Shown: positions 9,176 through 45,800, counted from the stretch's first letter. The stretch is DNA of 64,000 nucleotides from Elusimicrobiota bacterium (GCA_027319565.1 DAHVNA010000001.1:114716-178715); one strand, 5' to 3'. Translations and numbers: made by a program. The notes: generated by a model not told the origin, from the letters alone.

Positions 9176-9177
9176 AC

Positions 9178-9894: not shown

Positions 9895-9904
9895 GGAGAC
9901 TATT

Positions 9905-11893: not shown

Positions 11894-11948
11894 AGGCCTT
11901 GACATATTCCGCAAACCCGTTATACTTCTAAAAGGGGTTAAAATTTAA

Positions 11949-13703: not shown

Positions 13704-13711
13704 GAGGCCTT

Positions 13712-14935: not shown

Positions 14936-15546
14936 TGAACGGAGAGGAGAAGAAAGTAAAAGAGAGTAACGGAGAGTCACGGAAAGTAGAAGAAAGTTAC
15001 GGAAAGCGACAGAAGCAACGGAAACAGCCTTTTTCCGTTTCTTTCCGTTTCTTTCCGTTTCTTTCCGTTCCGTTTGGTTTTACGCTCATAGAGCTTTTAG
15101 TGGTGATTTTGATTGTCGGAATATTGGCGGCTATTGGATATCCTTCCTACATCCGTTCGATGGAAACCAGCAAGGCCAACGACGCCGTGGGGTATTTGAC
15201 CATGGCTGGGAACGCCGATCGGATGTACGCCGTGGATCATAATGGGATATATGTTGCAGCGGGACAAATTACTGATTCCTGTGATAATGGGGCTACTTGT
15301 CCTCAGAACAATGCCTGCGACTTGGTCTATTGCGGCTATATGCCGGCGGACAATTACAGTGAAAAGCCCTACAGTATTACCATTAATGCTTACGCTCCGC
15401 CTCCATCAGCGCTGGTGACGGTTCAGCGTTGTACAGGTTCTTCTCCTTGTACAAATTCTTCTCCTTACACCGGTTGGGGATATAATATTGATGCCAATGG
15501 AAATGTCACGCCATTTGGTAATCAGACGCCGCCGCCGCCACAATAA
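14935..15546 (+). CDS. Type IV pilin/pseudopilin (probable major subunit) with an exceptionally long charged leader of about 48 aa before the prepilin cleavage site.
   Basis: The ATG overlaps the pilC stop (ttgATGA). Class III signal ...SVPFG|FTLIELLVVILIVGILAAIGYPSY, with Gly at -1 and Glu at +5. The C-terminal domain is Cys-rich with a Ser/Thr/Pro-rich tail (GSSPCTNSSPYTGWGY...TPPPPQ). The leader is encoded by inverted and tandem repeat DNA. Confidence 0.75.
   Translation: MNGEEKKVKESNGESRKVEESYGKRQKQRKQPFSVSFRFFPFLSVPFGFTLIELLVVILIVGILAAIGYPSYIRSMETSKANDAVGYLTMAGNADRMYAVDHNGIYVAAGQITDSCDNGATCPQNNACDLVYCGYMPADNYSEKPYSITINAYAPPPSALVTVQRCTGSSPCTNSSPYTGWGYNIDANGNVTPFGNQTPPPPQ
14966..15075 (+). 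repeat. Inverted repeat with a tandem arm inside the pilin leader-coding region. ACGGAAAG-type units at 14966-15028 face (CTTTCCGTTT)x4 at 15031-15070.
   Basis: Direct reading: gtaacggagag / tcacggaaag / ttacggaaag / caacggaaacag, then cc, then ttttccgttt ctttccgttt ctttccgttt ctttccgttc cgttt. The two arms are reverse complements, so the segment can fold as a long RNA/DNA hairpin. Confidence 0.7.
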
Positions 15547-15561
15547 GAAAGAAGAAAGCAA

Positions 15562-16131
15562 ATGAAAGAAACGGGCGCGACGCTTATTGAGGTTTTAGCC
15601 TCCGTTCTCATAGCGGCGGTGATGACTTCCGCTGTTTTCAGCGTGACCTTGGGGGCCAAGGTACAATCAAAAATTACGGAAGAACACAATGCGGCGTCTG
15701 AGTGCGTGACCCAGCTGACCAATGAACTTCACTCTTTCGTCACCGGTTATTGGGATTACAATACGAATACTTTCAATTCCAATATGACGGAAATCTGCGG
15801 CCCCGCTGATTCGTCTTGTTACCCGGGAACAAGTGGGGGGAATTCCTCTCAATGGACTTGGGCAGATCTGGGAGTAACGGATAACTGCGGGAGCGGCTGT
15901 TACGTTTTAGCTACCGGAACTCACGTCCTTTCAGTTGGGCCCAATGGCTTGACGGCTTTGGGCCAACCCTTTTGTCTTCCTCCCTGGATGTGGCAGCCGC
16001 CTTATAATCCTAGTGGAAATCAGCTCTTGTCCTATACCGTTTCGGCTCCACCGATCGTCTCCGGTCAACAAGTGGGAGGGCCAGGGGTTCAAGTGACGGT
16101 GAATTGGTATAACATCAATGGGTCCCAATGA
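15562..16131 (+). CDS. Minor pilin/pseudopilin (prepilin-type N-terminus).
   Basis: MKETG|ATLIEVLASVLIAAVMTSAVF has the class III signal with Glu at +5. Size and position match the minor-pilin block. Confidence 0.7.
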   Translation: MKETGATLIEVLASVLIAAVMTSAVFSVTLGAKVQSKITEEHNAASECVTQLTNELHSFVTGYWDYNTNTFNSNMTEICGPADSSCYPGTSGGNSSQWTWADLGVTDNCGSGCYVLATGTHVLSVGPNGLTALGQPFCLPPWMWQPPYNPSGNQLLSYTVSAPPIVSGQQVGGPGVQVTVNWYNINGSQ

Positions 16132-16802
16132 ATAAAAATTTTATCGGAGTTTCGATGAGAAATGGCGGATTTACCTTGGTCGAAATGATTGTCGCTCTTC
16201 TTTTAAGCTCTCTTGTCATGGTGGGCTTGATTGATATTACCGCTAGCATCATCGCCCAGCATTTTGAGGGAATTCGTAGAGGAAGAGTAGACAGTGAGAC
16301 CCTTTATTCTCTCGATCAGATGAGGCTGGAGCTTGAAGCCGCGACCTATTACTCTTATCCCAATACGTCAAGCCCGGCTACCATGTCCATTCAGGGCTGC
16401 GGAAATTATTTTTCAGCGACAAGCCCTGGTACGCAAATTTACACGGGGCCCGGCGCAACAATAAGTTCTTTTGCCTATTGCCTTGAGAACAAGTGTACAG
16501 GGAGTAATTCCAATTTGTGCGATCCATCGGGTTATACGGGGCCCTATGATTTAATTCGCTATTATAATCCCAATGGTTGTCCTATTTCGTGCGGAGGAGG
16601 GACGCCTCAGACCTTGGTTTATCAGAATGTCTATTTAGAACCAATATCATTAAATCCTTCGGGCCAGCCTTTTGTCTTGAACCGGCCGCTCGGCGGGGTC
16701 GATGTGCATATGATTATAGGCTATCCTGTTTTGGCGGGAGAAACCCCCACCTATTATCAAATTGATACAACCTATATTCCGGATACGGGGCGCATGCAGT
16801 GA
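16128..16802 (+). CDS. Minor pilin/pseudopilin (PilW/GspJ-like).
   Basis: MRNGG|FTLVEMIVALLLSSLVMVGL prepilin motif. Start overlaps the upstream stop (ATGA). Confidence 0.7.
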   Translation: MNKNFIGVSMRNGGFTLVEMIVALLLSSLVMVGLIDITASIIAQHFEGIRRGRVDSETLYSLDQMRLELEAATYYSYPNTSSPATMSIQGCGNYFSATSPGTQIYTGPGATISSFAYCLENKCTGSNSNLCDPSGYTGPYDLIRYYNPNGCPISCGGGTPQTLVYQNVYLEPISLNPSGQPFVLNRPLGGVDVHMIIGYPVLAGETPTYYQIDTTYIPDTGRMQ

Positions 16803-17233
16803 TTAAAAATTCCAGAGGGCAGATTTTAACCAGCACCTTGGTGACCGCCATGGTGGTAGTCCTCATCGCGGCCGGGCTCATGCATTTAATCTTGATGAGG
16901 TATACCGCCGCTAATAGAGCGACGATGGAGGTTAAATACACCCGCTGCGTTCAACTGGCCGTGGGTCAATTTTTTTCTACCTGGGACAGGCTTAGTTCAA
17001 CTGCGGGGGTCACCGATCCTGTTTGCAGTAGCGCGTCGCCACTGTTTACCTGTGCTGGGTCAAACCATGGACATTGCCATTGTACCTGTACATTTAACAG
17101 TGGATCCTTATCCGGCCTCACGGTGAAGGTGAAACCTGGTACAAATGGTGCAAACCCTCCTTGCACTTTTGAGGCTCAGACTACAACGAATACGTCCTCG
17201 CCCTTTGCCTCGGTTACCCCCGTTTGCCAGTGA
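16799..17233 (+). CDS. GspK/PilX-like pseudopilin lacking Glu+5.
   Basis: N-terminus SRGQILTSTLVTAMVVVLIAAGLMHLILM resembles the GspK-type hydrophobic segment, with no Glu at +5. The product is short (144 aa) and Cys-rich. It is the last gene of the pilin block. Confidence 0.45.
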   Translation: MIKNSRGQILTSTLVTAMVVVLIAAGLMHLILMRYTAANRATMEVKYTRCVQLAVGQFFSTWDRLSSTAGVTDPVCSSASPLFTCAGSNHGHCHCTCTFNSGSLSGLTVKVKPGTNGANPPCTFEAQTTTNTSSPFASVTPVCQ

Positions 17234-27113: not shown

Positions 27114-27224
27114 AAATGATTTTTTAGGTTTTTATGATCACTGCCTCTTGAATCTTCGTTTCAGTTCTGTTAATCTGTTGGAGGTGTCGGTTGGTTAAAG
27201 GGTTTAAGAAACGGGAGAACGGTC

Positions 27225-27662
27225 ATGAACTATCATCTAAAACGGATTAATCCATATTGGCATAATCATCCCATGATTCCCACCGGGGTCGTGGTGGGAG
27301 TTATCTGCGCGGCCATGGGCTTTGCCGCTCAACGCCCGGCTATAGAAATCGTAGGAGTGTCGATCGCGGGATTATCTCTCTTTGTCGCGGTCAAGCCCGT
27401 CTTTTCCCTCTTGTTTTCTTTGATTGGGCTTTTTGGAGGAGTCAGCACGTTTTTGATCGCCCCCGGGCTTAACGCCGACAGCTTGACGCCACCGCTTAAG
27501 TTTATTTCCATTCTTCTATTCACCGCGTTTTATGCGGCGCTCATGGACGCGATGCTTTTGGTCGTGGCGGTGATTTATAATTTCCTGGTCGGCCCTGGGG
27601 GCCTTTCCGGGCTTCATCTTGAATTATCCGAGGCGGAGGCGGAAGAAGAGGTCGAGGGATGA
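27225..27662 (+). CDS. Small membrane protein (4 TM) with an acidic C-terminal tail. First gene of the signalling operon.
   Basis: Hydrophobic segments. Its stop overlaps the start of the OmpR-like gene (ATGA). Confidence 0.35.
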   Translation: MNYHLKRINPYWHNHPMIPTGVVVGVICAAMGFAAQRPAIEIVGVSIAGLSLFVAVKPVFSLLFSLIGLFGGVSTFLIAPGLNADSLTPPLKFISILLFTAFYAALMDAMLLVVAVIYNFLVGPGGLSGLHLELSEAEAEEEVEG

Positions 27663-28483
27663 AAATCAACGCCATTTACGCCTCGCGCGAACCCAATCGC
27701 GCAGCAGTTTTAATTGAAGCGTTATCGGCCAATCAGTTCGCTGTGTCTGTGGCGCAAAAATCCAAAGAGGTTTTGGATCAACTCTCTAAGCAGAACGCTA
27801 GTCTTCTTTTAATGGGAGAAAAACTACTTGATGCTGACGGAGTTTCATTCGTTAAAAACCTAAGGGCCAAAGGGGCTTATAAGCAAATGCCGGTGGTGGC
27901 GGTCGTCGAACATGGAGAAACCCAGGCGGTTGCCCCGCGGCGGAGCGCATATGCGGCCTTTGGGAAAAAGCCCGTTGACGCCATTCGCGTCAAATTTTCC
28001 GGCGAGGGAACTTCAAATGGAGTGGCCGCTTCCGCGTCTTCCCAGGCGAGCATTCGCCTCGCGTTTTTTAACGCGGGAGCGGATGAGTGTCTTTCTCTGA
28101 ATTGGGATGCGGCGGAATGTGTTGCCCGCATCAAAGCTCTTTTGAGGCGCACCCAAACGGTTCCTTCCGAAGAAATCATCAAGATGGGGCTTATCGAACT
28201 TAATTTGACAAGTTACACCCTTCATATTGGCGGCAAAAAAGTTAATTTAACTTCTAAGGAACTCGATTTGCTTTATGTTTTCCTAAGTTCGTCAAATCGC
28301 GTTTTAAGCCGTCCGTATTTAATTGAGCGCGTCTGGGGATATAACTATTTCGGGTCTCCGCGGACGGTGGATGTTCATGTGAGGCGTTTGCGGGAAAAAT
28401 TAGGCCCGGCGGCAAAGTACGTGACGACCATCCCTTGCGTGGGATATAAATTGATTCCCCCAAGTTCTGAAATGCGGAGGTAG
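27659..28483 (+). CDS. OmpR/PhoB-family winged-helix regulator with a degenerate (pseudo-)receiver domain.
   Basis: C-terminal trans_reg_C: LTSKELDLLYVFLSSSNRVLSRPYLIERVWGYNYFGSPRTVDVHVRRLREKLG...IPCVGYKL. The N-terminal receiver-like fold has no phospho-acceptor Asp in the expected place (SLLLMGEKLLDADG) and carries a roughly 60-aa insert before the DNA-binding domain. Confidence 0.65.
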   Translation: MKINAIYASREPNRAAVLIEALSANQFAVSVAQKSKEVLDQLSKQNASLLLMGEKLLDADGVSFVKNLRAKGAYKQMPVVAVVEHGETQAVAPRRSAYAAFGKKPVDAIRVKFSGEGTSNGVAASASSQASIRLAFFNAGADECLSLNWDAAECVARIKALLRRTQTVPSEEIIKMGLIELNLTSYTLHIGGKKVNLTSKELDLLYVFLSSSNRVLSRPYLIERVWGYNYFGSPRTVDVHVRRLREKLGPAAKYVTTIPCVGYKLIPPSSEMRR

Positions 28484-28488
28484 CGAAC

Positions 28489-28875
28489 ATGACAAAACAA
28501 AGCCATTCCAAGCTTCTGGTGATCGACGACGACGCCCATCTGCGCGAGAGTTTGGCCGAGGTTTTGGAACTGGACGGATTTGAATGCTTTCAGGCGGGAA
28601 CGGCCAAGGCCGGGCTTGAGAGCGCGGCGAAAATCAATCCCGAGATTGTCATCATGGATATTCAATTGCCGGATTCCTCTGGTTTTCAGATATGCCAGGA
28701 ACTGCGCAAGCGCTCGAAAACGACGATATTGATTATGATGACGGGGCGTTTTTTGTCTTTAGACGAGAAAAAACAGGGTTTTGCCTTGGGCGCGGATGAT
28801 TATTTGACCAAACCTTTCGATATCGTTGAGCTTTCTGCGCGAATCCGGCAAATGCTGACCCGCCGGAAGGGTTAA
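28489..28875 (+). CDS. Single-domain CheY-like response regulator receiver.
   Basis: LLVIDDDAHLRESLAEVLELDGFEC...IVIMDIQLPDSSGFQICQEL...DYLTKPFD, with the canonical DD, D and K residues. Confidence 0.8.
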   Translation: MTKQSHSKLLVIDDDAHLRESLAEVLELDGFECFQAGTAKAGLESAAKINPEIVIMDIQLPDSSGFQICQELRKRSKTTILIMMTGRFLSLDEKKQGFALGADDYLTKPFDIVELSARIRQMLTRRKG

Positions 28876-28886
28876 TCTTAGGCCTC

Positions 28887-30767
28887 ATGCCATCATCGGC
28901 TCAAAGAGGCAAACTCGCCTATAAAATTCTTCTCTGGTTTTTGGTCATTTCTCTAATTCCGATGGGAGTCGCCGGGCTCTATTTGATTAATATTTCCCAG
29001 GCTTCTCTTCATCAGCAAATTTTGGGGACGGAAAAATCCTTGGCCGAGAGTTTTGCCGAAACGGTCTATAAATATATCGCGACCTATCGGGATATTCTGG
29101 AAGAATCCGCGGCTTTGCCGCAATTTGTTTCGGGAAATAAAGAAGAGGAAGAGTCTTATCTCAAGCGCCTGATGAGCCTTCATGTCGCTATTTTAGAGCT
29201 CTCGGTTTTGGATTCTTCCGGCCATGAAACGATTCGGGAAGGGCGATTCCTCGGGCCCAACCCGCAGTTGCGCGATATGGAATCGGAGGGTTTTTTCGAT
29301 ACGGCTTTGGCGCGGGGGGAATTTATCGGCGGCCTTAAACGCTTTCAAGGCATTTATCCGACGGTGACAATCGCGGTTTCTATCGGATCGCCGAAATCGG
29401 GGCACACTCCCTTGGGAGTCTTGGCGGCTAAAATCAGCCTCAATGGACTTTCTTCAATGTTGTCCATGGAGTTTCCGCCTTCCAGCCAAACCTCGGCCGC
29501 CGTGGCCGCCCCGGACGGATTTCTGATCGCCCACTCCGATCCGGAAAAAGTTTATAAGCCGGACGCGCGTTTAAACAGCGAGATATTAAAAATTTTAACC
29601 ACCCAGGTCGCTGATTCCGGCGGGGGAGAAATAACCCTTTCCGATGGGAAAAACTTTTTAAGCGCTTATGCCGATGTCAATGGTTTGGACTGGATCGTCT
29701 ATGTTCAAGAGTCTATTCAAGCCGCCTATCATACGGCGGCGCGAATGCGCTCGCAGATTTTGCGGCTGTTGGTCTGGGTGATTATCGCGATTATCGTTTT
29801 ATCCTTGGCGGTTTCAAGGCATATCACGCAGCCATTAAGGGCTCTTAAGGACGCGGCTCGAAAAGTCGGCATGGGGCAATTTGAGGATTTCCCGGAAGTC
29901 CTTACCACTAACGATGAGATTGGAGATCTGGCCCAAGCGTTTTTGTCGATGAGCGAGTCGTTAAAAGAAAAAACCGGGGAACTGGTCGACACTAAACAAG
30001 AGCTTGAACGCTTGAACCGGACCCTTGAAAAGCGGGTCGAAGCGCGCACAAGAGAACTTAAAGCGGCGCAGGAAGAATTGATCAAAAAAGAGCGCTTAGC
30101 CGCGATCGGACAGATGGCTTCGGTGGTCGGCCATGAGATACGCAACCCGTTAGCCGTCATCAATAACTCGATTTACTTTATTAAAACGAAATTGGCGTCT
30201 GTCTTGGCGCAGGACCCGAAAGTCTCAAAGCACGTCAAAATCATAGAATCCGAGATTCAACAGGCCAATGGGATTATCAACGAGATATTGACCTATTCAC
30301 GGCAGCGCGAGCTTCAGCCCGAGACGGTTCGGCTCAATGATTGGCTGGAAGAGCTTCTTTCGGTGTATCCATTTCCTTCTCATATTACGGTTCAAAAAAT
30401 TTTCGTTCCCTCCAATCCGCCGGTTGAAATCGACTTGACCGAGATGCAGCAAGCTTTAAGAAATTTAATTGGGAACGCCATTGAGGTGATGCCGGAAAAA
30501 GGGATTTTAGGCGTTAAGACGTTTTTGTCTCAAGCCAACATGGCGGCTATCGAGATTTCTGACACCGGGCCCGGCATTCCCCCGGAGACGCTTGAAAAAA
30601 TATTCGCGCCATTTTTTACTACCAAGGCCCGCGGAACGGGCCTGGGGCTGGCGGTCGTAAAAAAAGTCATCGATCGCCACGGGGGAAAAGTGGAAGTGGC
30701 TAGCGTCGTGGGGCGCGGGACTATTTTTCGTCTCCATATTCCGATTTCCCAGAAGGTGGAAGCATGA
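28887..30767 (+). CDS. Sensor histidine kinase with a periplasmic (Cache-like) sensor domain, HAMP, HisKA and HATPase_c.
   Basis: Two TM segments flank a roughly 270-aa periplasmic domain. HAMP follows TM2. H-box ASVVGHEIRNPL. N, G1 and G2 boxes (GNAIEVM, DTGPGIP, GTGLGLAVV). Confidence 0.85.
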   Translation: MPSSAQRGKLAYKILLWFLVISLIPMGVAGLYLINISQASLHQQILGTEKSLAESFAETVYKYIATYRDILEESAALPQFVSGNKEEEESYLKRLMSLHVAILELSVLDSSGHETIREGRFLGPNPQLRDMESEGFFDTALARGEFIGGLKRFQGIYPTVTIAVSIGSPKSGHTPLGVLAAKISLNGLSSMLSMEFPPSSQTSAAVAAPDGFLIAHSDPEKVYKPDARLNSEILKILTTQVADSGGGEITLSDGKNFLSAYADVNGLDWIVYVQESIQAAYHTAARMRSQILRLLVWVIIAIIVLSLAVSRHITQPLRALKDAARKVGMGQFEDFPEVLTTNDEIGDLAQAFLSMSESLKEKTGELVDTKQELERLNRTLEKRVEARTRELKAAQEELIKKERLAAIGQMASVVGHEIRNPLAVINNSIYFIKTKLASVLAQDPKVSKHVKIIESEIQQANGIINEILTYSRQRELQPETVRLNDWLEELLSVYPFPSHITVQKIFVPSNPPVEIDLTEMQQALRNLIGNAIEVMPEKGILGVKTFLSQANMAAIEISDTGPGIPPETLEKIFAPFFTTKARGTGLGLAVVKKVIDRHGGKVEVASVVGRGTIFRLHIPISQKVEA

Positions 30768-31912
30768 CAGAACCGAAGGCGCGTATTCTCATTGTCGATG
30801 ACGATCCCCATATCCGCGAATCTCTGTTGGATGTTCTGGAAGACGCCGGTTACGAGGTTTTTACGGCCTCCAGGGAGAAAGAGGCCTTGGACAAGGTTCA
30901 CTCGCATAGTTTTGACGTGATCTTGATGGATTATAATCTTCCGGATTCAACCGGAATCCAGGTGATCAAGAAAATCAAAAAAATTAGGCCGATTGATTCC
31001 CAAAGCCAGATATTGATGCTTACCGCGGATAAAAGCCAAGAGACGGCGGTCATGGCCATTCAGGAATCCGTGGCGGATTTTCTCGTCAAGCCGGTTGATG
31101 TCGATCGCCTTAAACGAGTCATTTCAAATTCCCTGGAAAAGCTTCGCTTGATTCGGGAAAACGAGAGAATAACGCTTCAGCTTAAGAAAAGCAACGAGGA
31201 ACTCGAGCATTTGGACCGGATGAAATCTAAATTTCTCTCAATGTCTTCGCATGATTTATCCAATGCCTTAATGGCTCTTCAGGCCAGTTTTGAACTTCTT
31301 TCTCAAACGATGAACCCCTCGGAAGAGCAGACAAAAAGAATGCTCGCTATTTCTTCCAGCATCAGCCAATTAACTCGCCTGACCGCCGATTTAGTCGACT
31401 GGGCGTCCATTGAAAGTGGAAAATTCAGAATTGAGCGGGAAATCTGCTCTCCAGAAACTCTGCTACGGGAAATCTTGCTGGGTTCTCAAGCTCGCGCGCA
31501 GGCGCGGGGAATTAAGTTTACGGAAAAAATAGAAAAATCCTTGCCCGATATTTATGCCGACAAGAGGCGTATTTCCCAGGTTCTTAATAACCTGCTTGAA
31601 AATGCCATTCGCTACACTTCCAAAGGCGGAGAAATTCTGGTCTATGCGATGAAACTCGCCAACGGCAATGCGGAAACCGCGATTCAATTTGGAGTTAAAG
31701 ACTCCGGAGATGGGATACCGCCAAGCGAACTCGGTAAAATCTTCCAAAGTTTTTATCAAGGCTCCGATTCCTCTAAAAGCGGACGCCTGGGGCTGGGATT
31801 GGCGACTTCTAAAGAAATTGTCGAGGCTCACGGCGGAAGGATCTGGGTTGAAAGCGAAGGAGTCGGGCGCGGCGCGACTTTCTTTTTTACGGTTCCCACC
31901 TCGAAAAAATGA
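30764..31912 (+). CDS. Hybrid response regulator-histidine kinase (REC + HisKA + HATPase_c), cytoplasmic.
   Basis: RILIVDDDPHIRESLLDVLEDAGYEV...VILMDYNLPDSTG. H-box SMSSHDLSNAL. HATPase boxes NLLENAIRYT, DSGDGIP and GRLGLGLATSKEIVEAHGGRIWVESEGVGRGATFFF. Confidence 0.85.
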   Translation: MTEPKARILIVDDDPHIRESLLDVLEDAGYEVFTASREKEALDKVHSHSFDVILMDYNLPDSTGIQVIKKIKKIRPIDSQSQILMLTADKSQETAVMAIQESVADFLVKPVDVDRLKRVISNSLEKLRLIRENERITLQLKKSNEELEHLDRMKSKFLSMSSHDLSNALMALQASFELLSQTMNPSEEQTKRMLAISSSISQLTRLTADLVDWASIESGKFRIEREICSPETLLREILLGSQARAQARGIKFTEKIEKSLPDIYADKRRISQVLNNLLENAIRYTSKGGEILVYAMKLANGNAETAIQFGVKDSGDGIPPSELGKIFQSFYQGSDSSKSGRLGLGLATSKEIVEAHGGRIWVESEGVGRGATFFFTVPTSKK

Positions 31913-33975
31913 CGACTTTTCGCCGATGGGGGCGGCTTTTCTTGCCTCTCGCTTTTATTTCCTGCGCGACAGTCAAAGTTCCCATGTCGGTAACGTTTCC
32001 GCCGGCCATCGATTTGTCTCCTTACCATCGCTTCGCTTTTGGCGACATGAACGGCAATCTCGGCCATCGTTTTCAAGACGCTTTGGAAAGTTATTTGTCG
32101 CGCTCCAAAAATTTTAATTTCATAAATAGAGACCGGCTTAATGTGTTGACTGCGGAATATGACCTGACTCAGGCGCAAAATTCAGCGGATGCTCAAATGA
32201 ACGCTATTGCGATGAAGGTTCATGGCGCGGCGTTTATTTCGGGAACCATTAATCAAAATTATTACCAGTTCATTCAAGAGTCGCCGGATACCTGTCAATG
32301 GAATAACCGCGCTCATCCCTGCCCGTTAAAAACACGGGTCGGGCGGATTCGCATCGGCGGGCATTTGGATGTGACAAGTGCCGTAAGTGGAAAATTGATT
32401 CACTCCCAAGCGATATCAAAAGTTTGTCAGGCTCAGAGCCAGGCCAAAAACGCTTCTCCGCCTCCCATCGATCGCTCGCAGTTGACGCAAAATTGCGTTA
32501 ATTCCGCGGCGCGGGATTTGGCGATGCTTTTTTTGCCCTCAAGGAAAATGTTTTATCCAAGTTTCATAAAAGTGGGGGATATCCCGGCGGTGGCCCGGGG
32601 AATTGGAGATGTGGAGGCCGGAGACATAGCCCAAGCGGCCAAGGATTTTAACGCGGCCCTTAAAGATCCCAAGGTCGGCTCTAGGGATTTTGATAAAAAG
32701 TCTTTGTCTGAAATCTATTGGGATCTCGCGTTGGCCCAAGAATATTCCTGGCAGTTTGGGCCGGCCTTGGATTCCCTCAAGAAATCATATGCGCTTAACC
32801 CGGTTTTAAAAACGCAAAAAGAAGAATCCCAGCTTCTTAATTTTGAATCCGCGCGAAGACGGCTTTTAGGCGTTACTCCCCTGATGCTGGCGGTCGAAGG
32901 TGGGGCTTTTCATCAAGTTCAAACTCTTCTTCAAAAAGGCGCGGACCCTAATTTGCAGGATGCCTCGGGAAATACGGCCTTAATGCGCGCCGTTCAGAAA
33001 CAGAACTTGGCGATGGTCCAAATTCTTCTTCGCCATGGGGCTTGGCCCACGATTAGAAATAATCAAGGACTGAGCGCTTTGGATATGTCTAAAAATCCAA
33101 AAATTTCCGATCTGTTGAGAGAAGATTTTTCAAAACCTTCGGTTTCCCATCCAGAAAAGCCCGCGCGGCCTTCAAAAATCGTAATTCATTCCGATGTGGA
33201 TAAAATTCCTTACCATCTTCCGGAAGACCCGTTTAAAATCGCACTGGTCGTCGGCATTGAACACTATGAAAACAATCTCCCATCGGCTGATTTTGCCGAC
33301 CACGACGCCGAAGTCATGCGCGAGCATTTAATGGCTTTGGGCTATGCTCCGCGCCATATCCATTGGCTCAAAGATGAAGAAGCGACTCGCGCGGCCTTGG
33401 TCAAAAATTTTGAGGGCTGGCTGCCTCAAGTCGTTTCCTCATCTTCTACCGTTTTCTTTTATTACTCCGGTCACGGGGCCGCCGATCCGCAGACGCATAA
33501 AACTTATTTGGTTCCAGCGGATGGAGATCCCAATTATCTTCAAGAAACGGCTTATCCTCTTTCCCGTCTTTACTCGACTCTTGGAAAATTATCCGCAAAA
33601 CGGGTGATTGTCGTTTTAGACTCTTGCTTTTCAGGCCGCGGCGCGAGGTCTTTGTCTCCCACGGGAATGCGGCCTTTGGTGACCGTCTCTCCATCCGCGC
33701 CTATTTCAAAAGGGAGGGTTGTTGCCATGACCGCTGCTTCCGGGACCCAGATCGCGGAAGTTCTTAATTCCGAGGGCCATGGCTTGTTTACTTATTATTT
33801 TTTGAAGGGCCTTAATGGCGCGGCCACAACGCCAGTGAAAGTCATTACCTTGCAATCTCTCTATCATTATTTAAGGCCCGAGGTCGAAGACGCCGCAGGC
33901 CTTAAAAACCGGACTCAGACGCCGGAGTTTTTGCCGCAAAGACTTCTGAATGCGGCGCCGATTGTCTTGCGATAA
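31909..33975 (+). CDS. Lipoprotein with a CsgG/LpoB-like N-terminal domain, ankyrin repeats and a C-terminal caspase-like (peptidase C14) domain.
   Basis: Lipoprotein-type signal (RLFLPLAFISCAT). CsgG-like segment HRFAFGDMNGNLGHRFQDALESYLSRSKNFNFINRDRLNVLTAEYDL. Ankyrin units TPLMLAVEGGAFHQVQTLLQKGADPNLQDASGNTALMRAVQKQNLAMVQILLRHGA. Caspase His/Cys dyad in FFYYSGHGAADP and VIVVLDSCFSGRGA. Confidence 0.7.
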   Translation: MTTFRRWGRLFLPLAFISCATVKVPMSVTFPPAIDLSPYHRFAFGDMNGNLGHRFQDALESYLSRSKNFNFINRDRLNVLTAEYDLTQAQNSADAQMNAIAMKVHGAAFISGTINQNYYQFIQESPDTCQWNNRAHPCPLKTRVGRIRIGGHLDVTSAVSGKLIHSQAISKVCQAQSQAKNASPPPIDRSQLTQNCVNSAARDLAMLFLPSRKMFYPSFIKVGDIPAVARGIGDVEAGDIAQAAKDFNAALKDPKVGSRDFDKKSLSEIYWDLALAQEYSWQFGPALDSLKKSYALNPVLKTQKEESQLLNFESARRRLLGVTPLMLAVEGGAFHQVQTLLQKGADPNLQDASGNTALMRAVQKQNLAMVQILLRHGAWPTIRNNQGLSALDMSKNPKISDLLREDFSKPSVSHPEKPARPSKIVIHSDVDKIPYHLPEDPFKIALVVGIEHYENNLPSADFADHDAEVMREHLMALGYAPRHIHWLKDEEATRAALVKNFEGWLPQVVSSSSTVFFYYSGHGAADPQTHKTYLVPADGDPNYLQETAYPLSRLYSTLGKLSAKRVIVVLDSCFSGRGARSLSPTGMRPLVTVSPSAPISKGRVVAMTAASGTQIAEVLNSEGHGLFTYYFLKGLNGAATTPVKVITLQSLYHYLRPEVEDAAGLKNRTQTPEFLPQRLLNAAPIVLR

Positions 33976-34069
33976 ATTTTTCAATGGATGAGCGATTCCA
34001 TGCAAACTCATCTGGCATTGGATAATTCTAGCACGTGTGGGGGATTTTGGAAAGTGCTAAAATTCCACA

Positions 34070-35122
34070 GTGGGATACTTAAAAGGACTCGCGAAACGGG
34101 CGGAAGAAAGCGGTAAGGCGTATTTAAGGTCTCAATTTTTTAGGTTTTTACCGGTTTTGCCTCCGCCCAAGACTCCGGTCGACGTAAAAGCTGTTTCCCG
34201 CATTTTAGCCGTTCGTTCCGACGCGCGCTTAGGAAATATACTTCTTTTAACTCCGGCTCTGCGCTTAATTAAAGAGGCTTTTCCATCCGCACAAACGGAT
34301 ATCTTGATGCCGCAAGCTTATGCCGCGGCCTTAAAATTTAACCCTTGCGTCTCCCGGGTTTTAAGTCCCAAAGAATGGCCGCTTCTGCGCTTTTTCGGTT
34401 ATGATCTCGCTTTTGATTTTTCCTCCTACCATGCTTTTTCTCTCTCGGGTGCGTTGTGGAGCGCTTGGTCCGGTGCGCGCTGGAGGTTGGGATATCAACG
34501 TGGGGAATCGGATAGATTCATTAATATGCCTGTTCTCTGCCCTCGGGAAAAATTTCATGAGACCGTTAATTTAGCGCGCCTGGTGCGCGAGGCGGCGGGA
34601 AGGCCTTTAAGGCCCGATTCGGATTTAAGGCTTGAGTGGCATTGGGGTCCCGGTGAAAAAGAAGAGGGAGAAAAATTCTGGCGAAATCAGGGGTTGGATC
34701 AAGAATCCGTGGCTCTGTTCATCGGAGCTCGGGATCAGAAGCGACTCCCGCTGGCCTGGTTTTTAGAAATAGCCTCTCTTTTGCGCGCCCAGGGGAGAAA
34801 AACCGCTCTTCTCGCGGGTCCTGCGGAAAGACGTTTGATTGAGAATGTGTCCTTGCCCGTAGAGACGGTTTTACTGCCGGAGATGCCTTTAAGAAAATTT
34901 GCCGCCGCTTTATCCAATGCGAGAGCGGTTTTAACGGCCGACACGGGGCCGATGCATCTTTGCGTTTCTCTTAATATTCCGACGGTCGAACTCTTTAGCC
35001 ACAGCGAGCCTTGGAGGTTTGGCTATTCTCATTGGCCTTCCCATCGGGTGATAGAGACCCCAGGCCGATGGGCGGAAGTGGGAGAGGTCTGGCCGGTTTT
35101 ATCAGGGCTTCTTAACCGTTGA
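34070..35122 (+). CDS. Family 9 glycosyltransferase (ADP-heptose:LPS heptosyltransferase-like).
   Basis: ILAVRSDARLGNILLLTPALRLIKEAFPSAQTDILMPQAYAAALKFNPCV is a GT9 N-domain. C-terminal TADTGPMHLCVSLNIPTVELF is a GT9 nucleotide-sugar-binding motif. Confidence 0.7.
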   Translation: MGYLKGLAKRAEESGKAYLRSQFFRFLPVLPPPKTPVDVKAVSRILAVRSDARLGNILLLTPALRLIKEAFPSAQTDILMPQAYAAALKFNPCVSRVLSPKEWPLLRFFGYDLAFDFSSYHAFSLSGALWSAWSGARWRLGYQRGESDRFINMPVLCPREKFHETVNLARLVREAAGRPLRPDSDLRLEWHWGPGEKEEGEKFWRNQGLDQESVALFIGARDQKRLPLAWFLEIASLLRAQGRKTALLAGPAERRLIENVSLPVETVLLPEMPLRKFAAALSNARAVLTADTGPMHLCVSLNIPTVELFSHSEPWRFGYSHWPSHRVIETPGRWAEVGEVWPVLSGLLNR

Positions 35123-39520: not shown

Positions 39521-42500
39521 TTGAAAGGAGGGGCTTTGGGCTTGCTTTGGTCGTTATTTTTGTGGGGGAATCAGCTTTGTTTTCCCCAGGCTGCGGCAAT
39601 CCCGCCGGAGATGACTCTCAACACCCAAGCTCAACAGCTTTATCTCTCCGCGGGAAATTTTTTTCAAACCCAAGATTACGCCCATGCCGCCGATCAATAC
39701 CAAGAATTCTTAAAACGCGATCGCGATCAACCCGATCGTCTTGAGGCCCAGATGATGCTGGCGGAAAGCCTTTACCGGCAAGGCATTGCGCAATTGTCTT
39801 TGTCTCCTAAGCGCGCGGCAAAGATTTTTAAGCAGGCGAAAAAGGCTTATAAGAAAGTGTCTCGGGACTCTCCAAGCGGGGACTATCTGGCGGAGAGCGC
39901 GCGGTTTCGAATCGGGGAAATGGCCTTTAACCTTGGCCAATATGACGAGGCCGTTTCGGATATGGAAAGTTTGGTTTCCGATTACCCTCTAGGCACGTTG
40001 AGAGGCGAAGCCCGGTTGCTTGAGGCCGAGGCCTTGATGTCTCAAAAACAGTTCTCAAAGGCGGAGAACTTGCTGGATGAGGCTTTAAAAGAACAACCCT
40101 CTTATGCCGATAATCCGAGACTCAAATTAGTGCGCGGGATCGCTCTTTTTGAAACGGGAAATCCTGCCGCTGCTCTGGCGTCTCTGAGCGGGCTTCAATC
40201 TCCGCTCGCGCTTTTATATTCCGCTCGAGCCAACATGAATCTGGAAAAGCCTTTAATCGCGGTTGAGAACCTTAAGACCCTGATCGCGGATTATCCTGAA
40301 GACCCGGAAGTTGAAATGAGCCGTTATCTGGTGGGGGAGGCTTTTTTCGAGGCCAGAGACTACACCTCGGCAGCCCAGGTCTTTAACCAGTTTCTGATGG
40401 ATTATCCGCGTAGCTCTTTGCGCGGGGCGGCGACTTATAAAATGGGCTTATGCAGTTATAACCTTAAAGATTATATGGCGGCGCGCGGAGACTTTGAGTC
40501 GGTTGAACAAATGAGTCCGCCTGGAGAATTCGCCGAGCCGAGCCTCTACATGATGGGCGAATCTTTTCTAAAGGAAGGAAACTATACCAAAGCCGGTTTT
40601 GATTATTCCGATTTATCCTCCGCTTATTCCAATCGCTTGGCCGGAACCGCTCAATTTAAGCTGGCTTGGACCCAATATAAGCGGCAGGAATATCCGGAGG
40701 CCCATGTCACGCTCAATTCGTTCATTGTCCGCTATTCATCGCATCCATTAGTTCCAGCGGCGGCGTATCTCAATGGAAATACTTTAGGAAGCGAGGGTAA
40801 ATATCGCCAGGCGGCTCACGCCTATCAACAATCCTTAGACTTGGCGGCTTCCAATCTCTATCCCTATCGGAGTTTAATTTTAAACCCGGCCTTGGCCATG
40901 CTTAGCCGCTCCTATTTGGAAGCCGGAGAATACGGCCATTTGATCTCCGGTTATCAATACGTCCTTAAGGAAAATGCCCCCACCCAGGATCCTTGGCGCG
41001 CGGCCGCTCTCCTTTATATAGCGGAGGGATATTACCGGCAGGGGCTTTATGATCAGTCTCTTTCGATTTACAAGGAAATCATCCATTCCTATCCTGCGAC
41101 TCCGGAATCCATTGTCGCAAAGGATGGAATCAGTTGGTGTCTTTTTAAACAAGGGCATTTTTCTCAATCTTATCAGAAGCGCGTTGAACTGGAGGCCTTG
41201 AAGAACGCGCCGGCGATTGCCCCGTCTAAGACCGTTGTCGTCAATGAAAATCCGGGCGCCGATTTGTTTTTAAACAACCAGTATGCCGAGGCGGTCACTC
41301 TTTTTAATCAGAAAAAATATGCCGACGCCTTGGACGCCTTTGAGCGGTTTGAAAAAGATTACGCCCAGGACCCGCGCGCGGCCGATGCCGCTTTGGAAGA
41401 GGGTTGGTGCTATTACCGCCTCAATTATTACGGTGACGCCGTTAAAACCTGGGAAAGGGTGGAAGCGAGTTATTCGTCTTCTGAAGCCGCCAAATCCGCG
41501 GCCTGGGCCACGGCCGACACTTATTTTAGAGCCGCTCAATACGACAAAGCCGTGGCGGCCTATCAACATATACTCCAAACCTATCCGGATGACGCCGCTT
41601 CTTCATATGCCCGGCTTCGCATCGCCCAAAGTTATTACAACGCGAAAAATATTCCCCAGGCCATCTCTGCGTTTGAGGATGTTTTGAATAATTCTCCTGG
41701 AGACAAGGAGGGTCAACAGGTTCTGGATTATTTAACGCAGATGCTTTATCAGCCCGAATCTAAAGACGCGGCCTTAAAGGCTCTTCAATCTTTGGCGAGC
41801 TCCCAATCTTCGAACTCTTTTGGAGCGAGAGCGGAACTGGGTTTGGGGCTTTATTTTTTCGAGACGGGAGATTATACCAGCGCGGTTCAAAACTTAGAGG
41901 AAGCGATCCCCAACCTTTCGCGGGACAAAGATATTCGCGACGCCCAGTATGATTTGGCCCAATCTTATTACGCCTTAAAGCGCTATGAGGATGCGGAAAG
42001 GGCTTATCAGCGCTTTACGGAAAACTATCCTGACGATTCGCGTCTGAGAGCGGCTTTGTTTCGCATGGGAACCTCGGCGTTCAATTTAAAGGATTTCGAA
42101 AGAGCGGCCGCGGCTTTCCATCAGTTGGCGGCGCAGTATCCAAAGTCTCATTACGCCGCCTTGGCCCTCTACAACTCTTCCTTGGCCTATCGAAAATTGG
42201 GCGATTGGGAATCGGCGGCCTTGGCCTTGAAAAATTATATCGCTCTTTATCCGCAGCAGGCTCAAAAATCAAGCGCGCCATCGGAACTGGCTTCCGTTTA
42301 CGAGGAACAACGAGACTATGGAAAAGCGATTAAGCAGCTGGAGTCCGAAAAGAGCTCTCTTAAAAGCGATGACCCTGTTTTCCTAGAGACCAGTCTTGAG
42401 ATCGCCAAGGATTACGCGGCGATGGGAGATGATGCCGATTCTCTGAAAGAATACCAAGCCATCGAGGCTAGCCCGCTTAAGAGTAATCCCTACCGTTTAA

Positions 42501-42727
42501 ACGCCTTGGCCGATTTGGGCCGCTTCTATGAAGATAAAAAAGAGTGGAGCCTTGCGGCAAAGACCTATGAGGAGTTGTCTTTGAGCACCAACGATCCCAG
42601 TTGGCGCGATCCCGCCAAAGCTCGCGCAGAAGCGGATCGCGAAAAAGTTTCCAAGACCGTTTCGGCTGATTCCAATCAGAATCAAGTTCAGAATTCTTCC
42701 GCGCCGGCGGGAGGAGGGGCGCAATGA
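39521..42727 (+). CDS. Very large TPR-repeat protein (CpoB/YbgF-like repeats), probably periplasmic.
   Basis: N-terminal hydrophobic signal-like segment. TPR-like repeats across 1068 aa (e.g. QAQMMLAESLYRQGI, AAYLNGNTLGSEGKYRQAAHAYQQSL, AQYDLAQSYYALKRYEDAERAYQRF). The start may lie at in-frame TTGs at 39536 or 39542, since the SD falls inside the annotated start. Confidence 0.75.
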   Translation: MKGGALGLLWSLFLWGNQLCFPQAAAIPPEMTLNTQAQQLYLSAGNFFQTQDYAHAADQYQEFLKRDRDQPDRLEAQMMLAESLYRQGIAQLSLSPKRAAKIFKQAKKAYKKVSRDSPSGDYLAESARFRIGEMAFNLGQYDEAVSDMESLVSDYPLGTLRGEARLLEAEALMSQKQFSKAENLLDEALKEQPSYADNPRLKLVRGIALFETGNPAAALASLSGLQSPLALLYSARANMNLEKPLIAVENLKTLIADYPEDPEVEMSRYLVGEAFFEARDYTSAAQVFNQFLMDYPRSSLRGAATYKMGLCSYNLKDYMAARGDFESVEQMSPPGEFAEPSLYMMGESFLKEGNYTKAGFDYSDLSSAYSNRLAGTAQFKLAWTQYKRQEYPEAHVTLNSFIVRYSSHPLVPAAAYLNGNTLGSEGKYRQAAHAYQQSLDLAASNLYPYRSLILNPALAMLSRSYLEAGEYGHLISGYQYVLKENAPTQDPWRAAALLYIAEGYYRQGLYDQSLSIYKEIIHSYPATPESIVAKDGISWCLFKQGHFSQSYQKRVELEALKNAPAIAPSKTVVVNENPGADLFLNNQYAEAVTLFNQKKYADALDAFERFEKDYAQDPRAADAALEEGWCYYRLNYYGDAVKTWERVEASYSSSEAAKSAAWATADTYFRAAQYDKAVAAYQHILQTYPDDAASSYARLRIAQSYYNAKNIPQAISAFEDVLNNSPGDKEGQQVLDYLTQMLYQPESKDAALKALQSLASSQSSNSFGARAELGLGLYFFETGDYTSAVQNLEEAIPNLSRDKDIRDAQYDLAQSYYALKRYEDAERAYQRFTENYPDDSRLRAALFRMGTSAFNLKDFERAAAAFHQLAAQYPKSHYAALALYNSSLAYRKLGDWESAALALKNYIALYPQQAQKSSAPSELASVYEEQRDYGKAIKQLESEKSSLKSDDPVFLETSLEIAKDYAAMGDDADSLKEYQAIEASPLKSNPYRLNALADLGRFYEDKKEWSLAAKTYEELSLSTNDPSWRDPAKARAEADREKVSKTVSADSNQNQVQNSSAPAGGGAQ

Positions 42728-42781
42728 TGAATGGACGGAATTTTATTTCTAGTGGAGTGGTTCATAAATCCATTTACAATC

Positions 42782-42855
42782 CGTCACCCCGGCAGGTCTT
42801 AAGCCGGGGTCCAGCCTCTTTGTGGGTTTGGATTCCGGCAACAGCCGGAATGACG
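42782..42855 (-). repeat. REP/MITE-like double-hairpin element, copy 2, in inverse orientation to copy 1. It lies in the 5' leader / N-terminal extension of the FlgD-Ig gene.
   Basis: The reverse complement reads CGTCATTCCGGC-TGTT-GCCGGAATCCAAACCCACAAAGAGGCTGG-ACCCCGGC-TTAAGACCT-GCCGGGGTGACG, the same architecture as copy 1 at 17452-17526. Confidence 0.7.
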
Positions 42856-45800
42856 AAAATGCAAAATGTAAGCAAGAATTGGAGACTCTACGCTAGGGGA
42901 AAATGGCTTGCCATTTTCTTCTTCTTGATCGCCTTTTTATGGCCAAGGAATCTTCATGCCAAATCATCTCCATTAGAGCCCCCCAGCCTGATTTTTTCGC
43001 CCGCTGGAAACGGATCTCGAAAAACTCTTTCTTTTGTCGTTAATCTGCCGGAGACCGCCGAAGTCTCTAGCTGGCGTTTTGAGATTCGAGAGAAGGGAAA
43101 CAAAGACCTTCCCGGCGCCCTTGTCAAAGCATTTTCCGGTGATGGACGCCCGCCTCAAAAGATTGTCTGGGATGGAAAAGACACCCAAAACCGGGTGGTC
43201 GAGGATGGAACTTATTATTATTCGTTGAGCCTTCAGACCCCGGCTGGAAATCAAGCCGCGATTCGCCTTTCTCCGGTGATTGTCGACCGCGTTCCTCCCA
43301 CTATTTCGGCCAAGGTCCATCCCAGAATTTTTTCTCCCAACGGTCTTAAGCCGGAGACCGTTTTTACTTTGAAAGCTTCCGATCAGTACGGAATTTATGA
43401 ATGGCTGCTTGAAATTAAAGGTTCCGATGGGGTGCCGGTCAAGTCTTGGATGGGAAAAGGGCGTCCGCCCGCGGCCGTGCGTTGGGATGGGAGAGGAGAT
43501 TTTAATGAAGACGTGCCGAACGGGACCTATACCTTTCAGCTCACGGTTGAGAACCTGGCTTCAAATCGCGCGGTCACGCCGCCCCAGACGGTGACGGTTA
43601 AAAGGCAAGGCGTGGTTTCAACCGTGGGAGTGACTCCGGACGTTTTTTCCCCGCATAAAGAGAAACCGATCGCGAGTTTTGATATTACCGGCGGCGATCC
43701 TTCCTCGGTTGAGCGTTGGGAGCTCAAAATTATCAACCAAGCCGGCAGGCCCGTCTTTTCTTTCAAAGGCAATGGGGCTCCACCCGCGCGTCTTGACTGG
43801 AATGGGGATATTTCTAAGGATAAGACCGCGCCTGACGGGGCTTATCAAGTTATCTTATATGAGACCGACAATGCCGGGAACACCGCCGCTTCCGCTCCGG
43901 AACCCCTCTATGTCGATACAAAGCCGCCTCTTTTGGAAGCGCGCCTGGAGCCGGATTTGTTGAGTCCGGGAAAACAGCGCGAAAATTCCCAAGGGATTTT
44001 TAAATTGCGCGCTGAGAGCCGATATCCGTTTAAATGGGCCCTTAAAATTTATACCGATGTCGGAGAACCGGTCAGAACTTGGAGCGGGAAAATGGGGTCA
44101 AGAGTCCCGAACCAAATTTTGTGGCACGGCAATAACGACTCCGGGCAGATTGTCACCGACGGGACCTATTCTTATTCCCTTTGGGCTTCTGATATCGCCG
44201 GAAATGAAGGGGAAACTCCGCGGCAAAAATTCGTGGTGAACACGACTCCCCCGGCTCTGTCTGTTTCAGCGGATCATGCCCTTTTTTCTCCCAATGGCGA
44301 CCCCACTCTGAGCCACGTCGTTTTTAGTTTGAGCGCCCAGGATGCCAGTCCCTTCGCGAGCTGGGCTCTTTTGATTAACGATTCAAGCGGCAATCTTGTT
44401 CGCGAATTCACCGGATCTCCGCTCAATATTCCGGAGAGCGTCTCATGGAACGGGAAAAGCAAAGACCGCGAACCGCTTCCGGACGGGACCTACTCCTATG
44501 CGCTCGAGGCGAAAGATATCGCGGGAAATTCCGCCAAGACTAGTCCCCAAAATATCGTTATTGGAGCGACCAAGCCCATTCCTCGGGTGTCTTCTTCTCT
44601 GGACGCTATCTCGCCCAATGCCGATGGATTTAAAGACACGACCGATTTCCATTTGAGCGTCAAATCCTTCAATCCGGTTGAAAAATGGTTTCTTAGGATT
44701 TTTGATGAAGACAAGGTCGCGCGCCGGACCTTTGAAGGGCAGGGAGACGTTCCCGGAACCATCCAATGGGGCGGCGAGGGAGACGATCAAAAAACGCTTC
44801 CGGACGGGAGATATTCTTATCAGCTGGAAGTGGTCGACGCCGCCGGAAACACCAGCAAGACCCGCCTTAAATCTATTTTGATCAACACAACGCCGCCCAC
44901 AATTAAAATTACCGCCGACCCTGCTCTTTTTTCGCCGAAACCGACGGCGCCTCATTTTAGCTCTTCGACCATGTTTGTCCTAGGCTATCAAGATGTCAGC
45001 CCGGTCATGAGATGGAAAGTGATCATTCAGGACCCGATGAAAAATAATGTTCGCGTTTTTTCCGGAAATTCTTCTTTTCCGCGGTCAATTTCCTGGTATG
45101 GGCGTTCCAGCTCCAGAAAGATTTTACCGGACGGGCCCTACACCTATACTCTTTTCGCGGAAGATGATGTTGGCAATAAGTCGACCACCTCCGAGCAGAT
45201 TTTGCGCTTGGACGGCTCTTCTCCCCAGGTGAGTTTGAGAGCGGACCCCACGCTTTTTTCGCCCGGGACGGGCTCTCAGAAAAACGAGACGACTCTATTG
45301 TTGGGATATAAGGCCAAGGCCGACATCTCTAAATGGAAATTGTCCATTGACTTAAAAAAGGGAGAAGTCGCGCGCGTTTTCTCGGGCCTTGGGCGTCCGC
45401 CGCAAAATATCCCATGGGACGGGAAAAACGCCTACGGGCGCATTCTTCCCGATGGGACTTACGACGCGTTTTTGAAAGTCATTGACGAAGTCGGCAACGA
45501 GGGGCTTAGCCCCGCCGCTAAAATCACGATCGACACCTCAAAACCAGTCGCCACTGTCGTCGCCCAAACCGAGCAGTTGGAAGACCTAAGCGTTCCTCTG
45601 ACCGTTACGAAAGACGCGGACAAGGATATCGTTATTTCCTTGGCCAGCGAGGTCCTTTTTGATAGCGGCAAGTCGACTTTAAAAGATGCGGCCGACAATA
45701 CCCTTTTAAGAGCCGCCTATCTTATTAAGCGTTATCCCCATCGCGCCGTTTTAATTAATGGGTATACCGACAATGTGCCAATCCATGACGCGTCGTTTAA

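Follow-up and report, generated by a model that had tools for sequence, protein, structure and literature searches.

The 64-kb stretch of DNA from an Elusimicrobiota bacterium that was analysed here (hereafter the window) carries at positions 27225-33975 of its plus strand a block of six genes, the last of which encodes a protein of 688 amino acids (aa) with a caspase-fold domain. All coordinates are positions within this window, unless the locus of a relative is named. We address how this last gene, g6, relates to the five signalling genes in front of it, g1 to g5. Open reading frame (ORF) calling and Pfam annotation agree with an earlier reading of the locus made from the DNA alone (the sequence-only reading) on six co-directional genes, their coordinates and their domains:

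27225..27662, plus strand: g1, small membrane protein of 145 aa with four hydrophobic 19-mers and no Pfam family (public gene calls place its start at 27273, giving 129 aa).
27659..28483, plus strand: g2, OmpR/PhoB-type winged-helix protein with a pseudo-receiver (Trans_reg_C, E = 6e-24; partial Response_reg at residues 15-91, E = 1.6e-8).
28489..28875, plus strand: g3, single-domain CheY-like receiver (Response_reg, E = 4e-25) with the phospho-acceptor residues DD, D, T and K all intact.
28887..30767, plus strand: g4, membrane sensor histidine kinase (dCache_1-HAMP-HisKA-HATPase_c).
30764..31912, plus strand: g5, cytoplasmic receiver-kinase (Response_reg-HisKA-HATPase_c) with intact receiver residues.
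31909..33975, plus strand: g6, putative caspase lipoprotein of 688 aa (Ank at residues 320-393, Peptidase_C14 at residues 443-675).

Along the protein encoded by g6, the following elements can be told apart:

31909..31965, plus strand: signal peptide and lipobox (MTTFRRWGRLFLPLAFIS-C19), with a start codon that overlaps the g5 stop codon (ATGA).
31966..32862, plus strand: anchor module, made up of a CsgG/LptE/PelC-like alpha/beta domain (residues 20-215) and TPR helices (residues 216-318).
32863..33123, plus strand: about two to three ankyrin repeats (residues 319-405), with matches to Ank, Ank_2, Ank_4 and Ank_5 and, among PDB sequences, to ankyrins and DARPins.
33190..33201, plus strand: S-D-V-D motif in the linker (residues 428-431), about 12 residues before the caspase domain and invariant in the clade.
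33229..33972, plus strand: Peptidase_C14 caspase-fold domain with His522 (SGHG, codon 33472-33474) and Cys573 (DSCFSG, codon 33625-33627).

Profile searches bear out both the Peptidase_C14 and the Ank assignment of the sequence-only reading. The caspase profile PF00656 matches residues 443-675 with 60.3 bits against a gathering cut-off of 21.4 (E = 3e-16). His522 and Cys573 are invariant in eight clade sequences as well as in eight aligned caspase domains, seven of which come from other phyla. Compared with its most distant relatives in the clade, g6 is best conserved in the caspase domain (78-80% identity versus 47-54% for the anchor), and such constraint speaks for an active enzyme. Two positions ahead of the catalytic Cys, an Asp (D571-S-C573) is reminiscent of the metacaspase S1 pocket, and this Asp571 suggests that g6 may cleave after Arg or Lys, as metacaspases do. 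The linker motif recurs as S-D-V/I-D or S-E-V-D in seven of eight aligned caspase proteins, six of which belong to other phyla (Nitrospirota and Deltaproteobacteria among them). It resembles a caspase-type DxxD site and might serve in autoprocessing or in metal binding. An AlphaFold model of full-length g6 (alignment of eight sequences) was unusable at a mean pLDDT of 40.5 and was not taken into a fold search. Likewise, a PDB sequence search with the full-length protein was dominated by ankyrin and DARPin matches and was repeated with the caspase domain alone, for which the nearest solved structure is GSU0716 of Geobacter sulfurreducens (PDB 3BIJ), a distant relative only (E = 0.002). With prokaryotic C14 proteins (metacaspases and orthocaspases) in general, g6 has in common the dyad of an SGHG His and a DSCxSG Cys and the fusion to protein-interaction repeats.

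At the N-terminus, Cys19 follows a positively charged region and a short hydrophobic stretch, and it is kept in all seven aligned homologs that have an N-terminus. The lipobox in the window reads F-I-S-C, which is non-canonical at position -3. Members of the standalone protein family related to the anchor (see below) carry a Cys in the lipobox column in at least 90% of cases. Overall, a lipoprotein is a plausible interpretation of this N-terminus. Four further cysteines in the anchor (C129, C138, C173 and C196) are invariant between g6 and seven aligned homologs, which fits disulfides in an exported protein.

The two halves of g6 have separate relatives. A HMMER search with the anchor (residues 20-315) against 1.84 billion representative proteins returned 234 relatives (cluster representatives), most of which are standalone proteins 310-370 aa long and align over their full length from just behind their own signal peptide. 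Among the 150 relatives listed, the clade's own representative is the only one longer than 480 aa. A scan of 41 family members yielded matches to CsgG in 37 (best E = 1.4e-16), to TPR_2 in all 41 and to LpoB in 19, and on the anchor the Pfam CsgG profile scores 20.1-21.5 bits against a cut-off of 20.8, over profile positions 32-92 only. Modelled by AlphaFold from the family alignment, the anchor reaches a pLDDT of 89.9. The top Foldseek matches of this model are CsgG (E = 1.6e-6), HpaA, FlgT, LptE and PelC, at TM-scores of only 0.33-0.47. These structural relatives are outer-membrane lipoproteins, several of which form rings. The standalone CsgG/LpoB-like and TPR lipoproteins share with g6 the lipobox, the Cys pattern and the TPR signature YWNLGLxxEY, but they end after the TPR helices without a protease, and their conserved neighbours are other envelope proteins rather than kinases. 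The CsgG curli channel belongs to the same fold class, but g6 does not appear to be a CsgG ortholog; no curli genes (csgA/B/E/F) lie beside it, its neighbours being kinases, a GT9 gene and DUF4340/ABC genes.

Outside the clade, the relatives of the C14 domain are lipoprotein-anchored peptidases in metagenome-assembled genomes (MAGs) of Nitrospirota, Deltaproteobacteria and Dechloromonas (loci L017-L021), with caspase domains 30-44% identical to that of g6 (about 40% for Nitrospirota and Deltaproteobacteria). A signal peptide is present in six of seven of these proteins and ends in a lipobox Cys in five; their catalytic motifs are the same as in g6, and most carry an SDVD-type motif. Their N-terminal modules vary, from ankyrin repeats only to PEGA, Sel1 or an unassigned domain of about 200 aa, and in two L017 proteins the caspase domain comes right after ankyrin repeats, as in g6. 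Hence, the fusion that gave rise to g6 is specific to the clade and joins a standalone CsgG/LptE-fold and TPR lipoprotein to ankyrin repeats and a cross-phylum, lipoprotein-type caspase domain. The combination of CsgG/LptE fold, TPR, Ank and C14 in one protein is new and was not found outside the clade.

Both parent families show further gene arrangements. Lipoprotein-caspase paralogs occur in clusters, with four genes at a Deltaproteobacteria MAG locus and two at a Nitrospirae locus (L017, 1531-8121; L019, 1828-7219), and the N-terminal module differs from paralog to paralog. The standalone CsgG-TPR gene is divergently paired, at about 22 bp, with a gene for a second secreted protein in 19 metagenome loci (including L135, 8578-9681, and L116, 5823-6989), many of which are closely related high-GC soil contigs, so that this conservation may be shallow. 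By eye, the N-terminus of the paired protein resembles a CsgG/LpoB-like domain, and a gene for a SurA-like chaperone lies about 3.5 kb off.

Elsewhere, neither parent family is a regular neighbour of two-component genes. No two-component gene was found near the caspase loci L017-L020 of Nitrospirota and Deltaproteobacteria (0 of 4), which contain extra caspase paralogs instead; in L021, a receiver and a kinase lie about 4 kb from the gene for a Sel1-caspase. For the anchor, 54 metagenome loci were collected by a back-translated motif search and then profile-filtered for true family members. Longest-ORF calling gave spurious ORFs in the high-GC soil contigs; the search for two-component genes took in every ORF and used phmmer, tblastn and small hidden Markov models, with agreement among the three. 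A single locus out of 54 has a two-component gene, a kinase, in its flanks. Background loci also lack two-component genes, and this count denotes an absence of enrichment, not a measured depletion.

The signalling genes have a much deeper history than g6. Full-length g2 orthologs number in the hundreds across Elusimicrobiota, at 63-69% identity, and the same five genes occur in the same order in three deeply diverged genomes (L146, 1-16133; L147, 1-16121; L148, 1-16085), one of which is a complete 3.8-Mb chromosome. Their identities to the window are 37-45% for g1, which always lies directly upstream of g2, 67-68% for g2, 76-81% for g3, 63-64% for g4 and 55-57% for g5. All three have a Tad/Flp pilus cluster (TadE, RcpC, secretin, CpaE/TadA, TadB, TadC and TPR) immediately upstream of the block and, after it, genes for a REC-GerE (NarL-type) regulator and DUF2332; a fourth locus (L149, 1-11240) has the same upstream context and ends after g3. 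No g6 homolog was found within 6-10 kb downstream of the block in L146-L148. The occurrence of the block without g6 in deep lineages marks the protease as a late, lineage-specific addition that is not integral to it. Conversely, the 64-kb window holds no ortholog of the NarL-type regulator. The ancestral phosphorylatable DNA-binding output was probably this regulator, and the slot it occupies after g5 holds g6 in the clade of the window. Also new is the location of g6, which closes a signalling operon found throughout the phylum and stands where an output regulator was lost. The sequence-only reading had made the protease part of the signalling system, as its effector or input; this finds no support, as the block exists without a caspase across Elusimicrobiota and the relatives of both halves of g6 in other lineages are not beside two-component genes.

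The phylum-wide five-gene module may regulate Tad pili, and as such may be of broader interest than the caspase. The window itself has genes for a secretin and a T2SSE-type ATPase (9905-13703), some 14-18 kb upstream of the operon and within a tightly spaced run of genes (8696-17233); they give partial matches, at 30-35% identity, to their counterparts in the L147 Tad cluster.

Within the clade, the g5/g6 pair is stable. The exact g6 protein is present in several assemblies in an identical context, and the clade relatives examined, several of them MAGs labelled Elusimicrobia, have g6 proteins at 88, 86, 78, 77, 76, 64 and 61% identity. Wherever a contig reaches upstream of the caspase gene, the gene for the receiver-kinase directly precedes it, with a 4-bp overlap or a distance of 10-13 bp. 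Thus, the synteny on which the sequence-only reading depended is found in every clade relative in which it could be examined. Synteny breaks behind g6 instead: the relatives L007-L011 continue with queA-tgt, and the window with a gene for a GT9 glycosyltransferase, for which no match was found in L012-L016, and then a DUF4340/GldG-like ABC cluster. The rearrangement breakpoint lies within the 94-bp spacer after g6. The downstream regions compared are 33976-35122 of the window, L007 12056-14298, L009 2288-4608, L010 4598-6843 and L011 12259-14567.

At the junction itself, the g5 stop and the g6 start share the ATGA at 31909-31912, as read directly in the sequence and as reported before. The description of six overlapping genes applies to three of the five junctions, namely g1/g2, g4/g5 and g5/g6, each with a 4-bp overlap, whereas g2/g3 and g3/g4 are separated by gaps of 5 and 11 bp, respectively. 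No plus-strand promoter-like site was found upstream of 31909, and no Shine-Dalgarno sequence precedes the g6 start, an absence that speaks for translation coupled to that of g5 on a shared message. The only terminator-like hit is a hairpin at 31928-31949, just inside g6, with a stability no better than that of shuffled sequence (z = 0.65). This hairpin was rejected as an operon boundary on that score, and such hits are fewer in the region than in shuffled sequence. No sign was seen of the operon boundary at 31912 that would have spoken against the sequence-only reading. Taken together, the kept adjacency and the lack of boundary signals at the junction make co-transcription of g5 and g6 likely.

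The overlap has less to say. In the window, 33% (14 of 43) of the same-strand neighbour pairs overlap by the same 4 bp and 79% (34 of 43) lie within 20 bp or less (longest-ORF calling); other overlaps include 17 bp between ruvB and spoIID, and in relatives the housekeeping gene queA runs over the end of the caspase gene in a like manner. As a 4-bp overlap is the norm of this genome, the one between g5 and g6 is uninformative about a functional link, and the view of the sequence-only reading that the coupling is unusual and implies such a link is not supported. The conserved order is similarly limited as an argument. The entire stretch from a cytochrome c gene through ruvA, ruvB and spoIID to g1-g6 is collinear across the clade, and conserved order at such depth can be simple inheritance. 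Identities within the clade are 92-98% for g1, 95-99% for g4, 76-88% for g6, 90-98% for RuvB and 74-92% for RuvA. The value for g4, which includes its periplasmic domain, is unusually high for a sensor kinase. In two relatives, a 66-bp in-frame tandem repeat stands right after the coupled ATG of the caspase gene and before the signal peptide, with six copies at 99% identity in L015 (9604-10000) and three in L011. The unit contains the hairpin CTCGC-GAA-GCGAG and, if translated, would place 66-132 extra residues ahead of the signal peptide.

The limits of the presumed operon are set by two spacers:

27114..27224, plus strand: upstream intergenic spacer of 111 bp, the largest gap of the run from ruvA to the caspase gene, with the ribosome-binding site GGGAGA at 27213-27218.
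33976..34069, plus strand: spacer of 94 bp after g6, followed by the gene for the GT9 glycosyltransferase; synteny with all relatives breaks here.

The upstream spacer is the likely start of the operon and would hold its promoter, and a promoter scan gave no consensus sigma-70 match in 27114-27224. No intrinsic terminator was predicted in the downstream spacer, and Rfam and tRNA scans of the window gave no matches. Further downstream on the plus strand (39521-46023), two large overlapping genes encode a multi-TPR protein of 1068 aa and a protein of 1099 aa with Ig-like and OmpA domains, according to the annotation of an identical public contig.

The composition of the block also bears on how it may signal. 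In g4, hydrophobic segments at residues 14-32 and 291-309 lie on either side of dCache_1, and this bracketing indicates a sensor that faces the periplasm; no hydrophobic segments were found in g2, g3 or g5. The receivers of g3 and g5 have the full set of phospho-acceptor residues. The receiver of g2 had already been called degenerate and turns out to be even more so: in a receiver alignment in the register of the PhoB profile, the acidic pair DD is replaced by AS, the phospho-acceptor Asp by G, the Thr by V and the Lys by L, and about 40 aa are inserted. Lacking every phospho-acceptor residue, g2 is excluded as the canonical terminus of a phosphorelay, which contradicts the multi-step phosphorelay into an OmpR-type output that the sequence-only reading had proposed. 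Atypical OmpR-family regulators that act independently of phosphorylation are known, such as HP1043 and ChxR. Like g2, they have a winged-helix output behind a receiver-like domain without the phospho-acceptor Asp; unlike them, g2 has the insertion of about 40 aa in its receiver and lies in an operon that also encodes a pair of kinases and two receivers with all residues intact.

We moderately favour the interpretation that g6 encodes an active, lipid-anchored, caspase-fold peptidase of the envelope that has been appended to, and is co-transcribed with, an ancient signalling operon of which it is not a core component. The protein would be exported via Sec and lipidated at Cys19, most likely to reside on the side of the outer membrane that faces the periplasm, with a disulfide-stabilised CsgG/LptE-fold domain as its anchor. 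Its TPR and ankyrin repeats may recruit protein partners or select substrates, and the C-terminal C14 domain with its intact dyad would then cleave after Arg or Lys. The fused gene would have lodged at the 3' end of the five-gene operon in one clade, in the position of the NarL-type regulator. It would be co-transcribed and probably translationally coupled, with a g6 level that tracks the expression of the operon. The pathway itself presumably runs without g6 in most of the phylum: g4 would sense a periplasmic ligand via dCache and phosphorylate the receiver of g3, of g5 or of both, and g2 would be a DNA-binding protein that works independently of phosphorylation. The faster evolution of g6 than of g4 within the clade was counted in favour of g6 not being integral. 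Nonetheless, several points weigh against this interpretation. The adjacency survives down to a protein identity of at least 61% and past the rearrangement of the gene immediately downstream, which lends some support to selection for retaining g6 with the operon. Its position exactly in the slot of the ancestral regulator could reflect a rewiring of the pathway rather than a mere extension. In addition, g6 and the sensor domain of g4 are both predicted to be periplasmic, and a direct interaction is physically possible. Finally, all genomes compared are MAGs of uncultured organisms.

Part of this evidence would also suit a role of g6 as a proteolytic co-sensor, in which it cleaves an envelope or periplasmic protein bound to its TPR and ankyrin repeats and thereby makes or destroys a ligand or inhibitor of the g4 kinase. 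Such a scheme would be akin to the control of ExoS by ExoR proteolysis, or to the input of the lipoproteins RcsF and NlpE into Rcs and Cpx. The shared extracytoplasmic location of g6 and dCache, the adjacency and tight spacing kept throughout the clade and the occupied regulator slot are compatible with such rewiring, and the receiver and kinase near the Sel1-caspase of L021 point the same way. There is also precedent for control of a kinase by way of a periplasmic helical-repeat protein and its proteolysis, and Peptidase_C14 domains occur in ExoR-like Sel1 proteins (PMC4550343). We nevertheless consider this role rather unlikely. The five-gene block does without a caspase in deep lineages, the anchor family and the lipoprotein-caspase family are unlinked to two-component genes elsewhere, g4 stays nearly constant while g6 drifts to 76% with no sign of co-evolution, and the overlap tells nothing. 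Quite improbable, in our judgement, is the bolder proposal that a caspase-family protease anchored in the outer membrane replaced the NarL-type output of an ancient Tad-pilus-associated operon and now serves as proteolytic co-sensor for the dCache kinase; if true, this would make it the first protease of the caspase fold to be built into a two-component pathway in bacteria. We equally doubt that g6 is an independent neighbour, transcribed and regulated on its own and adjacent only by inherited synteny in a shallow clade of compact genomes. Collinearity from cytochrome c to g6 makes the order non-specific to g5/g6, overlaps between unrelated genes are commonplace (ruvB/spoIID; in relatives also queA and the end of the caspase gene), and the L011/L015 lineage tolerates 3-6 copies of the 66-bp repeat at the junction, just past the start codon; but the junction offers neither a promoter-like site, nor a credible terminator after g5, nor a Shine-Dalgarno sequence that would free g6 from coupled translation, and the synteny break falls after g6 and not before it. 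A cytoplasmic cell-death or anti-phage effector under kinase control is hardly credible. It is suggested by generic PADLOC matches to the 'caspase' and 'Ankyrin' models and by a sub-threshold match to the NCBIfam EACC1-associated caspase model (92 bits versus a cut-off of 140), but the signal peptide with its lipobox Cys, the four invariant anchor Cys and the outer-membrane lipoprotein fold place the protease outside the cytoplasm. Moreover, PADLOC returned no system-level match (generic caspase, Ankyrin and receiver only), no NTPase, TIR or other conflict partner lies nearby, and the neighbours are housekeeping and envelope genes. The identity of the locus as an anti-phage defence system was rejected on this PADLOC result together with the export signals.

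Caspase homologs with repeats, putative signal peptides and signalling operons are already known as a general kind. In a 2012 survey, TPR_1 and TPR_2 were among the four domains most often fused to prokaryotic caspase homologs, N-terminal helices that may be signal peptides were present in many homologs, and 23 of 217 metacaspase operons encoded domains for signalling, sensing or regulation (PMC3501461). Homologs with TPR, Sel1 or WD40 repeats were covered as well. The same survey reported no metacaspase in the Elusimicrobia genomes of that time and the highest density in Nitrospirae (PMC3501461), and this peak fits the nearest caspase relatives of g6. Our literature search found no prior description of a CsgG-like/TPR/Ank/caspase lipoprotein, nor of caspases in Elusimicrobia. 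Lipoproteins that feed two-component systems are represented by RcsF for Rcs and NlpE for Cpx. In the ExoR-ExoS-ChvI system, a periplasmic helical-repeat protein acts on the sensor kinase, and its periplasmic proteolysis is the switch (PMC4550343). There, as with RcsF and NlpE, the accessory protein co-occurs phylogenetically with its kinase, whereas the kinase block studied here is far older and more widespread than g6. Furthermore, ExoR is the substrate of a protease, while g6 itself carries the protease domain.

Where genomes are compact, neither 4-bp overlaps nor shallow synteny can prove a functional link, and it was the deeper comparison that separated an old, conserved signalling unit from a protease added late. 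The pairing of the caspase with the signalling operon is recent and lineage-specific, and a signalling mechanism based on it is unproven. Although caspase homologs are common in bacteria, the function of only a few is known, and most of the discussion has revolved around cytoplasmic cell death or defence. Against this background, g6 stands out as a clear predicted extracytoplasmic member with an intact active site under apparently strong purifying selection, and its gene context suggests an envelope role tied to signalling. Should g6 indeed communicate with the kinases, controlled proteolysis in the periplasm by an enzyme of the caspase fold would join the mechanisms known to govern two-component systems.

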